This document shows, in pieces, positions 12,160-57,983 of a stretch of DNA of 61,015 nt. Numbering within the stretch: position 1 is the first letter of the stretch; each line of letters begins with the position of its first letter. This stretch comes from an uncultured Clostridia bacterium (GTDB lineage Bacteria > Bacillota > Clostridia > TANB77 > CAG-508): positions 1-61,015 of the forward strand of contig CAQRYF010000003.1 of assembly GCA_948875265.1 (NCBI GenBank), written 5' to 3'. The notes below the pieces were generated by a model. It ran no database searches and had not been told where the DNA came from. It was given only the letters and a program-made list of their open reading frames with translations. The position numbers were made by a program, and so were the translations under genes.

Positions 12160-12192
12160 TGATGATTTTAGGGACGGAGGAAAAAATCATCA
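12160..12192. repeat. GGGAC-loop hairpin element, sub-family I, copy a
   Basis: TGATGATTTTAGGGACGGAGGAAAAAATCATCA. Stem is GATGATTTT/AAAATCATC. It lies 17 nt upstream of the ATPase start. Confidence 0.85.
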
Positions 12193-12269
12193 TTTTTCAC
12201 TCTGTCTTTATTGTTTTATATTTAATTCTATGTAGCTTGTACTTCTTTATTACTATTTTTATTTTTTAA

Positions 12270-12302
12270 TGATGATTTTTTCCTCCGTCCCTAAAATCAT
12301 CA
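12270..12302. repeat. GGGAC-loop hairpin element, sub-family I, copy b (exact reverse complement of copy a)
   Basis: TGATGATTTTTTCCTCCGTCCCTAAAATCATCA. It lies 36 nt upstream of the ytaF/mntP-like start. Confidence 0.85.
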
Positions 12303-12338
12303 CTTTTTGGTTGTTTTTGTCATATTATGTTTTAAGAG

Positions 12339-13031
12339 GTGTTTAGTTTGATTAATTCTTTATTTTTGGCAATTTCTAGTAGTATAGATTCTCTTGGTAT
12401 TGGTGTTACATATGGAGTTAAGAATACTAAGATTTCATATATAGGAAAAGTGGTTTTATTTTTTATTTCTTTTATCATATCTATTTTATCAATATGGTTT
12501 GGAAATGTTATAAAAAATATCTTTTCTGATTATTTAACTACTTTTATTGGTAGTGGTATTCTAATTTCTATGGGATTTTTTATTTGTTTTCAAGCTTTAA
12601 AAAAAGAAAAAGATTGTATGAACAATACTGATAATAAAAAGTTTTATGATAATTATGATAATAATATAAATTTTAAGGAAGAAAAAATTTATAGTTTTTT
12701 TATAAAGTTCCTAGGAATTACAATAAAAATAATTAAAAACCCTATTTCTTCTGATTTTGATTATTCAAATTCTATTGATAGTAAAGAAGCTTTGTTTCTT
12801 GGGCTTGCTCTTTCTTTAGATAGTTTTTGTATAGGAGTTGGAGGTAGTATTATTGGAATAAGTTCTATGCTTTTCCCATTGCTTATTGCATCTTTCCAAT
12901 TGTTATTTTTGAGTGTGGGCAATTTTTTAGGCAGAAAACTTAATAAATTAAGTCATCTGCCTGATAATATCTGGTCTATTATTTCTGGTTTCCTATTAAT
13001 TATTATTGGTTTAATAAAATTGATGCTTTAA
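12339..13031 (+). CDS. YtaF/MntP-family membrane protein (sporulation membrane protein YtaF or Mn2+ efflux-pump family)
   Basis: 230 aa. Two homologous halves each carry the SIDS(L/F)xIGV motif. GTG start after AAGAGG. Confidence 0.6.
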   Translation: MFSLINSLFLAISSSIDSLGIGVTYGVKNTKISYIGKVVLFFISFIISILSIWFGNVIKNIFSDYLTTFIGSGILISMGFFICFQALKKEKDCMNNTDNKKFYDNYDNNINFKEEKIYSFFIKFLGITIKIIKNPISSDFDYSNSIDSKEALFLGLALSLDSFCIGVGGSIIGISSMLFPLLIASFQLLFLSVGNFLGRKLNKLSHLPDNIWSIISGFLLIIIGLIKLML

Positions 13032-13089
13032 AAAAATTGAATTTAAACCTACAATCAATGTCTACCTCTACCAATTTCGACAAAATAAC

Positions 13090-13121
13090 TGAAACAAATT
13101 TGCCCTGTCCCTACTGTTTCA
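13090..13121. repeat. GGGAC-loop hairpin element, sub-family II, copy a
   Basis: TGAAACAAATTTGCCCTGTCCCTACTGTTTCA. It spans the smc stop codon (13111-13113). Confidence 0.8.
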
Positions 13122-16100
13122 ATTTCATTGATAGTAGTTTTGAAATTCCGTTTTCTTCCATTGTGACACCATATACTGTGTCTGCTGCTTCCATTGTTCC
13201 TTTTCTGTGTGTTATTACTAGGAATTGTGTATTACTTGAGAATTTCTTTAGGTATTCTGCGAATCTAAATACGTTCACATCGTCTAATGCTGCTTCTATT
13301 TCGTCAAGTACGCAGAATGGGGCTGGGTTTATTTTTAGAATTGCAAACAGTAATGCAATTGCTGTAAAGGCTTTTTCTCCTCCTGAAAGTAGTGTCATGT
13401 TTTGTAATTTCTTTCCTGGTGGTTGTACTGTTATTTCTATTCCACATTCTAGAATGTTTTCTTCATCTTCTAATTTTAATGTTGCATTTCCTCCACCAAA
13501 TAATTCTTTAAATACTTCTCCAAAGTTTTTATTTATAATTTCAAATTGAGCTTTAAATTGTTCTTTCATTGTGGCTGTCATTTCAGATATGATTTTTCTT
13601 AATTTGTTCATTGTGTCTTCTAAGTCAACTCTTTGTTCACACATGAAATCATATCTTTCTTTTAGAGCTTTGTATTCTTCTATAGAATCTATGTTAACAC
13701 TTCCTAATTCTCTTATTTCTGATCTTAGTCTATTTACTCTTTTTTGTGTTAAGGTTACATTTTCTGGTTTTTTATAATCTTCTACATTATTTGGTGTTAA
13801 TTCATATTCTTCCCACATTTTATTTATAATTGAATTAATATCATCTTCTAATTTTGTCTTTTTTACATCTAGTTTTACAATTTGAGCTTTTAATTCTTCA
13901 ATTACATTAAATTTATTGGTGATTTCTTCTTCTTGTTTTGATAATTTATGATTTTTGTCAATTCTGTCTTGTTTTAGTTCTTCTATCTTATCTCCACTAT
14001 TTTTAACATCCTCTTTGATTTTTTCGATTTTTTCTTTTGTTTCTTGTATAGATTGTTCTAAATCTAAATTGTCTTGCGCTATTTGTTCTATTTGATTTTT
14101 CTTATTTTCAATACTTTTATTAGTATTTTCTATTTCTAAATTAATTCTTTCTTGTATTTCTTCTATAGATGTTTCACTTTCATCAAATGATGATACTGAT
14201 ATTTTTAAATTTGTAATATCAAAGTTTAAATCATCTACATATTTTTGATTATCTTTGTTTAATTCTGCAAATTCTGTGATTATTTTTGTAAGTTGTTCTG
14301 TTGATTCAGTTAATTCTTCAATTTCTCTTTGTATATTTTCTTTATTTAATATTGCATCTTGTTTTTGTTTTTCTAGATTGATATCTTCTTCTTTTAATTT
14401 GTTAAGTCTATTTTCAATTTTTTCTATATTTTCATCAATTGCTACTACCTTTTGTTTTTCTGTTGCATATGTTATATCAATTTCTTGAAGTTCTTTTTCT
14501 AAGCTCATTGCTTCTTCTAAAGTATCTTCTATAGAGCTTTCATATTCTTGTTTTTCTTTTTCTAATTTTTCTATTTTTGATTTTAGGTTTTTAATATCTT
14601 TTTCTAGTTTTTCTATTTCTCTTCCTCTACCTAAAATATTAACTGTTTTCTTACTAACTGAACCACCTGTTATTGCTCCAGAAGGATTAATTACATCTCC
14701 TTCTACAGTTATAATTCTAAATGAATATCCATTTTGTTTTGCAACTTTTATAGCTGTATTCATATTATCAACAACAACTGTTCTTCCTAATAAATTGAGA
14801 ATAATTTGTTCATATTTTTTGTTGTATTTTACTAAATCTGATGCTATTCCAATGTATCCTTTTTCATTTCCTTTTATTTTGTCTAATTTTCTACCTTTTA
14901 CAGATGTTATTGGTAAAAATGATGCCCTTCCTAAGCTATTTTTTCTTAAATGTTCTACTAATTTTTTTGCATCATCTTCTGTTTCTGTTACTATATTTTG
15001 AAGGCTTGCTCCAAGACACATCTCTATTGCTGTTTGATATTCTTCAGGTACTTCTATAATGTTTGCAAGTACTCCATGCATTCCTTTTCCTAATTCTTTT
15101 ATATTTTCACAGTCTTTTAAAAGTGATTTTACACTTTTTATATATCCTTCTTTCTCTTTTTCAGTTTCTATTAGGAATCTTAATTTGGATTCTTTTATTC
15201 TCATTTCACTCATACTTGCATTTATACTGTTTTCATAACTTTTTATTTTCTTATCTGCTTCTTCTTTTTTAGTATTAATTTCTTCTAAAGCTTTTACTAC
15301 TTTATTTCTTTTACTGTCTATTTCATAGAATTCTTTTGATATCTCATCTTTCTTTAATCTTGTTGAATCTAATTCTGAAATATGATTTGTTATTTCGTTT
15401 TTTACTTGTCTTTGTCTTTTTTCATCGTTTTGATAATTTATATCCTGAGTATTAATTTCTGATTGTAATTCATATTTTTTATCTATATTTTGTTCTACTT
15501 TTACTTTATATCCTTCTATTTCTAATTCTTTATCTGATAATGTTTTTGTTATTTTAGCTAATTCTTCTTCTTTTTCTTTTAATTCCTTTTCGAATTTTTC
15601 TTTATTTTGTTTTAAATTATCTTTTTTCTCTTCTTTTTGTTTTATCTCTTCTTGTAATTCTTCTAATCTTACTTCTTGTTCTTCTATTTCTTTTTCATAT
15701 CTTTCTTTATTTTCTATATTATTATGAATTCTAGTATTTGCAACATTTATGTCTGAGTTTAACATTTCAATTTCTTTTTGACTTTCGAATCCTAAATTAG
15801 ACATTTCTTCTATTTTATTTGTTATTTCATCTATTTGTGTTTTTAATTCTTCTTTAAGATTTTTTATTCTGTCAAGCTTTTCTTCTTCATCTTTACATTG
15901 ATTTGTAAAGATTTCTTCATCTTTTACTATTTCTTCTAAATCCACTTTATATTTCTCAATATTATAGATAAATAATCCTATTTCTATACTTTTTAATTCT
16001 TCTCTTAAATTTAGGTATTTTTTTGCCTTTTCAGACTGAGCTTTTAGTGGTTCAATATTTGTTTCTATTTCTGATAAAATATCATTTATTCTAAGTAAGT

Positions 16101-57280: not shown

Positions 57281-57369
57281 AGAAAATAAGAACGTACAGA
57301 AATGTGCGTTACTAAATATCATTGATATACATCACATTGCCGACCAAAGCAAAATGTGGTGTGTTTTTA
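57281..57369 (+). ncRNA. Candidate small RNA (antisense to the 3' end of a mini-ORF)
   Basis: Promoter TTGACA (57246-57251)-17 nt-TATGCT with upstream TG. Terminator hairpin ACATCACATT...AATGTGGTGT (57329-57362) followed by a T-run. Confidence 0.35.
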
Positions 57370-57459
57370 TTGTTCCCTATTAGATAGTATTATATATACA
57401 ACACTTAATAAGACAATGTTTATAGTTATTGAAATCATAAATCCTATTATTAAGAACAT
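57367..57459 (-). CDS. Candidate type I toxin-like hydrophobic peptide (30 aa)
   Basis: MFLIIGFMISITINIVLLSVVYIILSNREQ, with GGAG 6 nt upstream of the ATG. Its 3' end converges on the candidate sRNA terminator. Confidence 0.35.
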   Translation of the reverse strand: MFLIIGFMISITINIVLLSVVYIILSNREQ

Positions 57460-57789
57460 AAAAAACTCCAATATATAAACACCACCTCCAATCTCCCAAC
57501 TAACGTTAAGGACTACAGGTAACACCAACATTTGCTTTTATTTTATTTCTATCGTTACCTACTATATAATATATTGACAAATAATTCAATCAAACATTTA
57601 AAAATTCTACAAATTTTCTTTAAATCATAAATTCGCAAATTTATTAAATCATTTCAAAATATTATTTTGTCACATTTTTATACATATGCATTAGTCTTTT
57701 TGTTACATTTTGGCACATATAAAATCATTTTTGGCATTTTCAACTTCTATACTGCATTCTTATTTTTACCATAAAAGCATATAAAAAAA

Positions 57790-57823
57790 TTGAGAAAATA
57801 TTGATATTTCAACATTTTCTCAA
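57790..57823 (-). terminator. Bidirectional terminator downstream of tRNA-Cys
   Basis: TTGAGAAAAT-N14-ATTTTCTCAA flanked by an A-run and a T-run. Confidence 0.6.
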
Positions 57824-57831
57824 TTTTTTCT

Positions 57832-57906
57832 TGGAGGCGACACCCGGATTCGAACCGGGGATCAGAGTTTTGCAGACTCGTGCCTTAGCCACTTGGCTAT
57901 GTCGCC
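57832..57906 (-). tRNA. tRNA-Cys (GCA)
   Basis: The reverse complement folds as a cloverleaf with acceptor GGCGACA/TGTCGCC, anticodon loop CTGCAAA, T arm CCCGG-TTCGAAT-CCGGG, discriminator T and an encoded CCA. Confidence 0.9.
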
Positions 57907-57952
57907 ATATATTTAATTATATGATATTGTAAAAGATTTAGTTAATCTTTTT

Positions 57953-57983
57953 TGATGATTTTTGACTCCGTCCCAAAAATCAT
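57953..57983. repeat. GGGAC-loop hairpin element, sub-family I, copy d (variant)
   Basis: TGATGATTTTTGACTCCGTCCCAAAAATCAT lies in the spacer between tRNA-Gly and tRNA-Cys and touches the CCA end of tRNA-Gly. Confidence 0.8.

Follow-up and report, generated by a model that had tools for sequence, protein, structure and literature searches.

GGGGAC-loop hairpins of uncultured gut Clostridia are probably REP/REPIN-type repeats with a RAYT-type partner gene

Eight short hairpins are dispersed over a 61,015-nt stretch of DNA (26% GC; hereafter the window, meaning the whole stretch) from an uncultured Clostridia bacterium (contig CAQRYF010000003.1). They belong to a repeat family whose stems vary in sequence while a GGGGAC motif in the loop is retained. 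Most probably (we put the probability at about 0.8) they are repetitive extragenic palindromes (REPs), single or paired as in REP doublets (REPINs), of uncultured gut Clostridia with a GC content of ~25-30%, with a REP-associated tyrosine transposase (RAYT) as their partner.

The original prediction, made from the window alone, had divided these hairpins into three sub-families (types I, II and III), and all eight were recovered at their predicted coordinates with the predicted stems and loops (Table 1); a search of the window for further copies of the family found none. In the following, G-form denotes the strand on which GGGAC is read. The type I unit at 12160-12192 is the exact reverse complement of that at 12270-12302, the unit at 43105-43135 is identical to both over 31 nt, and 57953-57983 is a variant. 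The two type II copies share TTTGCCCTGTCCCT, and their stems indeed differ by one compensatory change from A:T to G:C, but a single such pair is weak evidence when taken alone. The positions relative to stop codons, ribosome-binding sites (those of addB and of the P-type ATPase gene each have a hairpin directly 5'), a tRNA spacer and the end of addB also hold when checked against open reading frames (ORFs), tRNAs and Pfam matches.

Of 15 occurrences of GGGAC/GTCCC in the window, eight lie within these hairpins. Perfect stems of at least 7 bp with GGGAC in the loop are found at six loci (15 nested calls), compared with a mean of 0.5 calls in 20 Markov shuffles, and CTCCGTCCC occurs four times against 0.62 expected; a chance origin of the eight hairpins is excluded. 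When folded as DNA, types I and II adopt the structures that had been proposed (-3.0 to -6.9 kcal/mol), with z-scores between -3.3 and -6.1 for five of the six hairpins and -2.0 for the sixth (13090-13121). For type III the fold is less unique, owing to a competing GTCC...GGAC helix. As had been predicted, the hairpins differ from stem-plus-T-run intrinsic terminators: their stems are A/T-rich and weak (-3 to -7 kcal/mol), their loops span 9-18 nt and no T-run follows. Nothing terminator-like was seen at the doublet either, where a promoter and terminator scan of 12160-12302 returned nothing above chance.

A scan of public genomes, one per species, with the sub-family I core pattern ATTTTNNNCTCCGTCCCNAAAAT located at least 113 loci in at least 42 species-level metagenome-assembled genomes (MAGs) of uncultured low-GC Clostridia, with a median GC content of 29%. 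These MAGs, labelled as uncultured Clostridium, Clostridia, Eubacteriales or Bacillota, come from sheep, goat, mouse, chicken, rabbit and human gut. Loci from other genomes are designated below by L-numbers and RAYT homologues by P-numbers. Two matches to the core pattern were set aside as chance: L066, in a Sphingobacteriaceae MAG, has 37% GC and forms no hairpin, and L108 was discounted from its GC content of 51% alone. The core pattern had no match in viral contigs, and a 29-mer from the window had no exact match in JGI metagenome contigs. Hairpin density is about one unit per 9-20 kb. Contigs that encode an identical ATPase often begin exactly in the hairpin, and ENA and Logan contigs start or end within it, because assemblers break at multi-copy repeats.

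Each unit is an imperfect palindrome of 25-40 nt with a variable, A/T-rich stem, the inner end of which is usually TTT/AAA, and a loop of 11-18 nt that starts (T)TT-GGGGAC-(G/A)-G in aligned copies. The arms differ widely between copies (GATGATTTT, CATGATTTT, TTAAATTTT, GAAATTTT, GGTGTTTTT, TTGCCAAA and others) and are complementary within each. Among 50 distinct copies, both sides had changed at 12 of 12 stem pairs, and the covariation score was 0.458, as against 0.156 for shuffled and 0.12-0.18 for slid partners; because copies with four inner pairs had been chosen as input, the percentage paired is inflated, whereas the covariation of the outer pairs is not. Of all occurrences of GGGAC, 46% fall within a hairpin loop, as against 5-10% of those of most control pentamers. 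In related genomes, units of types II and III appear with further stems, as inverted doublets and intermingled with type I units. Sub-families I, II and III are thus one family that shares a loop motif. The original prediction had named beforehand two outcomes that would speak against it, namely a wide scan without further copies or enrichment over shuffled AT-rich sequence, and the loss of any common loop motif once more copies were aligned. The additional copies, the preference of GGGAC for loops and the retention of the motif across all three types are the reverse of these outcomes, and the covariation of the stems that it anticipated is equally present.

The search for a partner gene, which had also been suggested, led to a RAYT-type gene in related genomes that is bracketed by the same hairpins. 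In L032, an ORF of 248 amino acids (4573-5316) lies between two hairpins and matches Pfam Y1_Tnp with an E-value of 2e-11. Residues H60 and H62 (the HUH motif), Y121 (the catalytic tyrosine of KYIHxNPVK) and N125 are invariant in the homologues and align with H59, H61, Y115 and N119 of the E. coli protein. The best structural match (Foldseek) of an AlphaFold2 model (pLDDT 84.5) is E. coli TnpA-REP (4ER8_A; E 3e-6), followed by the TnpA proteins of ISDra2 and IS608. At E <=1e-10, 1239 homologues were found, many of them on contigs of 0.9-1.5 kb that end in hairpins. The gene is single-copy and syntenic, lying between ABC-F or dCMP deaminase and tex in seven related lineages, and MAGs that carry it also carry dispersed hairpin copies. 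In L130, L124-129, L131, L133 and L135 two inverted hairpins enclose it, the G-form lying ~110-150 nt upstream and the C-form 5-50 nt past the stop codon. Only the downstream hairpin, at the RAYT stop codon, is intact in L032, L086 and L120; the upstream one is decayed in L032 and L120, and L086 is cut at the contig end. One RAYT lineage (L124-L129 and L131-L132; flanks near 9860 and 10756-10792) has GGGGTC instead of GGGGAC in both flanking loops, and may have undergone a motif switch and have a very small population of repeats. Should the window species possess a RAYT gene, bracketing hairpins of the TGATGATTTT-AGGGACGGAGGAA type would be expected.

The clostridial proteins (~245 amino acids; homologues P0001-P0120) are longer than the E. 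coli protein (165 amino acids) owing to a conserved, confidently modelled helical extension of ~100 amino acids at the C terminus (...FEIFEKxDILKKLIxYLK...IKYTxIMKKLDITKGTMERLK). This extension may be a DNA-binding domain.

The polarity with which hairpins flank the RAYT gene recurs in pairs that contain no gene. Core pairs less than 1.5 kb apart are arranged '-+' in 60 cases and '+-' in one, with a modal core-to-core spacing of 77-79 nt. The order is G-form, a spacer of ~40-80 nt and C-form, which is the arrangement of REPINs and of bacterial interspersed mosaic elements (BIMEs); about half of all hairpins sit in such doublets, of which 12160-12302 is the example in the window. Since the same polarity brackets the RAYT gene, the doublets look like gene-less derivatives of a REP-RAYT-REP unit, and the singlets look like decayed doublets. 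Although the loci are ~84% coding, nearly all copies are intergenic or lie on first or last codons. Where genes were called on both sides of an intergenic copy (160 copies), the context was tandem in 126, convergent in 25 and divergent in nine.

As extragenic repeated palindromes with compensatory stems, and with a bracketed RAYT gene (in related genomes) whose product has HUH and tyrosine residues and a RAYT-like fold, the clostridial units and their partner share defining features with REP/BIME-RAYT systems. The resemblance to the E. coli REPs and BIMEs with TnpA-REP (4ER8) extends to short imperfect palindromes that occur singly or as inverted pairs, mostly between tandem or convergent genes, and to a single-copy HUH/Y1 gene bracketed by the repeats, with aligning HUH, Tyr and Asn residues and the best fold match. 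However, the REPs of E. coli are rich in GC; their stem carries a bulge, their loop is small or structured, and GTAG is conserved at the 5' foot (PMC3479197). The clostridial stems are instead A/T-rich and variable, and GGGGAC(G/A)G forms the 5' part of a large loop. Pseudomonas REPINs and RAYTs likewise combine inverted doublets of fixed polarity, a less conserved spacer, decayed-looking singlets and a single-copy, syntenic RAYT gene flanked by the same repeats; by contrast, the host phylum here is another one, and several stem types within one genome share only the loop motif. The IS200/IS605 elements (IS608, ISDra2) and palindrome-associated transposable elements (PATEs) also rely on a Y1 HUH transposase that recognizes subterminal hairpins on single-stranded DNA. 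They provide the second-best structural matches, and the strand and orientation bias of the clostridial units is compatible with targeting of the lagging-strand template, as in IS200/IS605. In IS200/IS605, however, the end hairpins share one orientation on one strand and the element, gene included, is multi-copy, whereas the clostridial gene has inverted flanking hairpins and occurs once, at a syntenic site.

Among described REP superfamilies, those tagged by GTAG or CGTC (Di Nocera et al. 2013, PMC3733652) resemble the clostridial family in compensatory stem variation, in the predominance of head-to-head dimers, and in being placed 3' of ORFs and sometimes within genes, repair genes in particular. 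Their loops are mostly 2-5 nt, as opposed to 11-18 nt here. CGTC-tagged REPs have a terminal CGTC, a stem of 8-9 bp, a loop of 4-5 nt and a CCA tail (PMC3733652); in the clostridial units, by contrast, CGTC occurs only inside the loop on the C-strand (CCGTCCCC), with neither a terminal tag nor a CCA tail. No Firmicutes are among the hosts in that survey (PMC3733652), and the REP-rich RAYT groups 2 and 3 have been placed in Proteobacteria, group 1, which lacks abundant repeats, being 'also found in the Clostridia' (PMC5581495). A search of the accessible literature for RAYTs in Clostridia or Firmicutes found nothing else relevant. The family is therefore an undescribed clostridial version of REP-RAYT, itself a known class of genomic parasites or commensals, and is distinguished by a loop-located motif and an extended RAYT.

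By analogy with E. coli TnpA-REP and the TnpA proteins of IS200/IS605, the clostridial RAYT would bind the folded hairpin on single-stranded DNA, probably on the lagging-strand template. It would read GGGGAC and cut and rejoin the single strand, so that units could spread, nest or be removed. Palindrome-driven slippage could convert doublets into singlets, and template switching may lengthen stems. Copies would persist where they do little harm, mainly right at gene 3' ends, where a TGA or TAG of the element often serves as the stop codon.

Orthologous sites differ in their hairpins between lineages. L067 carries a doublet and L105 a singlet at the same site, with flanks that are 94% identical, and the extra segment in L067 is exactly the spacer and the second REP, with the direct repeat AAAATCATCA at its borders. 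L041 and L045 share a block of ~150 nt at a site that is empty in L061. At the pgeF stop codon, a type I unit in the window corresponds to a type II-like unit in L025 and to none in L106 and L135. The 3' end of addB carries a type II unit in the window (45341-45381), a GGGATT type in L025 (~2466-2540), a type I doublet in L106 (~5760-5870), yet another type in L080 (~440-470) and none in L135; in each REP-bearing lineage the element is translated as a different C-terminal tail. An identical pgeF is present on a 128-kb contig. The closest relatives (93% pgeF identity) have the same elements as the window at the window sites. They therefore offer no clean pair of filled and empty sites, and boundaries were studied in more distant lineages.

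These boundaries have some odd features. Partial stubs consisting of a 5' arm plus TT(T/A)GG(G) lie directly upstream of 21.5% of complete units, compared with a background of 6% (3.7-fold). Examples are found at 42088-42123 in the window and in L038, L061, L068, L083, L099, L102 and L133, and in doublets the stubs are mirrored on the other side. Complementary flanks specific to individual copies lie outside the core, and at some sites one REP type is nested in the remains of another. Stubs, flanks and nesting together suggest, tentatively, that the 5' side of the loop is where new units insert or are cut. Rolling-circle replication origins, including those of CRESS (circular Rep-encoding single-stranded) DNA viruses, present a conserved nonanucleotide in the loop of a hairpin with a variable stem. 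This is a functional analogy only, in that an HUH enzyme reads or nicks the loop while the stem is free to vary; the clostridial units are dispersed chromosomal repeats, not origins, and no Rep-type protein accompanies them. An alternative that we regard as tentative and rather unlikely departs from textbook REP/RAYT pairs. Here the RAYT would read, and perhaps nick, the loop motif in the manner of a rolling-circle Rep, new units would target existing hairpins or stop-proximal TGA/TAA-TTTT, and the hairpins would have been recruited throughout the genome to supply a 3'-end module of stop codon plus hairpin. Nested stubs of 5' arm and TTGGG, copy-specific complementary flanks and genes that end inside the element would all follow from it.

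The orientation of the units relative to genes bears on the question of whether they act primarily as RNA. Where genes run into a hairpin no more than 20 nt from their stop codon, the G-form is sense in 68 cases and antisense in ten; the corresponding numbers for singlets in tandem context are 42 and 15. TGA makes up 36% of stop codons in genes that read into a hairpin, compared with a background of 15%, because the TGA (aTGAtttt) or TAG (tTAGggac) of the element serves as the stop. The possible use of the Shine-Dalgarno-ATG in GGAGGAAAAAATCATG variants as the start of a short ORF was rejected, as the downstream reading frames are not conserved. One could envisage stem-loops of 3' untranslated regions or intercistronic spacers, with the GGGGAC(GGAG) loop bound by an RNA-binding protein or nuclease. 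These would act on the stability, processing or termination of transcripts, or on the termination of translation, and the DNA repeats would follow from that function. The sense bias, the frequent start of hairpins at or in stop codons, the copy at a tRNA 3' end and the known effects of E. coli REPs on mRNA decay and translation (PMC3733652) would all suit such a role. However, the + strand of the window has a negative GC skew throughout, which makes the gene-rich - strand the leading strand, and with genes so oriented the sense bias fits transcription and lagging-strand-template targeting alike. Furthermore, any transcript meets both orientations in a doublet, the window doublet is in the C-form and 5' of both flanking genes, and hairpins of this family flank a transposase gene in a fixed polarity. 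Mismatched stem pairs are without wobble asymmetry (eight G.T versus nine A.C), a result that is either negative or uninformative as regards a hairpin at the RNA level; the stems are weak and without a following U-tract, and no Rfam family matches. We therefore consider a primary RNA function improbable. The original prediction had left it open whether the hairpins are REP-like or are RNA or single-stranded DNA hairpins read through the GGGAC loop; the REP-like option has gained support, while nothing shows a role at the RNA level.

A third possibility, that the doublets are classical miniature inverted-repeat transposable elements (MITEs) derived from DDE-type insertion sequences by internal deletion, with the 33-nt hairpins as terminal inverted repeats as in Correia elements, is very unlikely. 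Doublets of ~100-145 bp with perfect terminal inverted repeats and an AT-rich interior do have the look of MITEs, some spacers are common to several loci, and filled and empty sites exist. On the other hand, the junctions lack direct target-site duplications and the flanks are often inverted repeats; each putative terminal repeat is itself a conserved hairpin that is also found alone as a singlet; and the only transposase consistently bracketed is a Y1/HUH enzyme, the YhgA-like gene of the window (49745-50827) having no flanking hairpins. A palindrome-binding transcription factor with operators in, for example, a regulon of MntP and the P-type ATPase is strongly disfavoured: two identical palindromic sites do fill the divergent control region of these genes, yet the majority of copies are found at the 3' ends of genes or in convergent intergenic regions and few in divergent ones (9/160), the conserved part is the non-palindromic loop while the arms vary, copies also occur in a tRNA spacer and in coding 3' ends, and the copy number is such that it breaks assemblies.

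The divergent intergenic region between MntP and the P-type cation ATPase (12144-12338) consists almost wholly of the REP doublet. No manganese riboswitch or other Rfam element was found upstream of either gene, the Rfam scan of the window having matched two tRNAs only. As no promoter stood out and nearly the entire region is doublet, the MntP and ATPase promoters may lie inside it.

Several points weigh against the assignment to REP/REPIN-type repeats with a RAYT partner. No RAYT gene, tex or ABC-F was found in the 61-kb window by tblastn, in keeping with the original prediction that no RAYT is visible there, and synteny between the window and L135 ends after ldcA; with the partner not located in the window genome, RAYT activity in that genome is unproven. 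The best NCBIfam match of the L032 protein is the model for REP-associated tyrosine transposases, but its score of 69.8 bits is under the curated cut-off of 80, and the sole sequence match of the clostridial RAYT in the PDB, 4ER8, is weak (E 0.022). The RAYT lineage of L124-129 has no dispersed copies within 20 kb, and copy numbers per genome are lower bounds or extrapolations. Unlike GTAG REPs, the clostridial units have no GTAG at the 5' foot and show no sequence conservation 5' of their stems. Finally, the textbook REP/RAYT model predicts neither complementary outer flanks nor partial duplications of the 5' arm.

In the accessible literature, work on REP/REPIN-RAYT systems deals almost exclusively with Proteobacteria (PMC3733652, PMC5581495). 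To these the clostridial family adds a specificity motif in the loop, stems that are free to vary, several stem types with one motif per genome, and an extra conserved RAYT domain, and it offers a contrasting case for substrate recognition by RAYTs and for the persistence of repeats. In practical terms, the repeats cause common gut Clostridia to assemble from short reads in fragments, and they create gene 3' ends that annotation reads as variable C-termini, as in addB.

Table 1 Hairpins and associated features in the window
Feature	Position	Strand	Description
Type I REP	12160-12192	+	G-form on + strand; left half of inverted doublet (REPIN/BIME-like); 16 nt from P-type ATPase gene start
Doublet spacer	12193-12269		AT-rich, 77 nt
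Type I REP	12270-12302	-	G-form on - strand; right half of inverted doublet
Type II REP singlet	13090-13121	-	Stem TGAAACA/TGTTTCA; G-form on - strand; smc stop TAG (13111-13113) within loop (gTAGggac)
Two partial tandem copies of TGTCCTTTTGGG (5' arm and loop start)	42088-42111	+	Immediately before complete type III REP
Type III REP singlet	42112-42142	+	Stem TGTCC/GGACA; loop TTTTGGGGACGTTTCT...; G-form on + strand; abuts ldcA stop TGA (42143-42145)
Type I REP singlet	43105-43135	-	G-form on - strand; pgeF stop TGA (43132-43134) is the TGA of arm aTGAtttt
Type II REP singlet	45350-45381	-	Stem TGAGACA/TGTCTCA; G-form on - strand; encodes last 13 addB codons
Type III REP singlet	48725-48757	+	Stem ATGTCC/GGACAT; G-form on + strand; between ogg stop TAA (48758-48760, adjoining) and addB ribosome-binding site
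Type I variant REP singlet	57953-57983	-	Loop TGGGACGGAGTC; G-form on - strand; begins at tRNA-Gly 3' end, in spacer before tRNA-Cys

The REPs of the window cluster near genes for DNA repair and maintenance (addB, ogg, the uracil-DNA glycosylase gene, smc and topA), which echoes a remark made for other REPs (PMC3733652). The YhgA-like gene mentioned above encodes a putative transposase (Pfam Transposase_31, of the Rpn-type nuclease family) and lies ~1 kb from the type III hairpin at 48725. The LD-carboxypeptidase gene ldcA is represented in the window (42143-43091) by two overlapping ORFs, one for the N-domain (42621-43091) and one for the C-domain (42143-42673). In relatives it is a single gene of 308 amino acids, so that the split reflects either a frameshift (pseudogene) or an assembly error. 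The gene for a family-4 uracil-DNA glycosylase (41504-42062) is also split, into 41877-42062 (the N-terminal 61 amino acids with the Cys motif) and 41504-41872, a second apparent frameshift less than 1.5 kb from that in ldcA.

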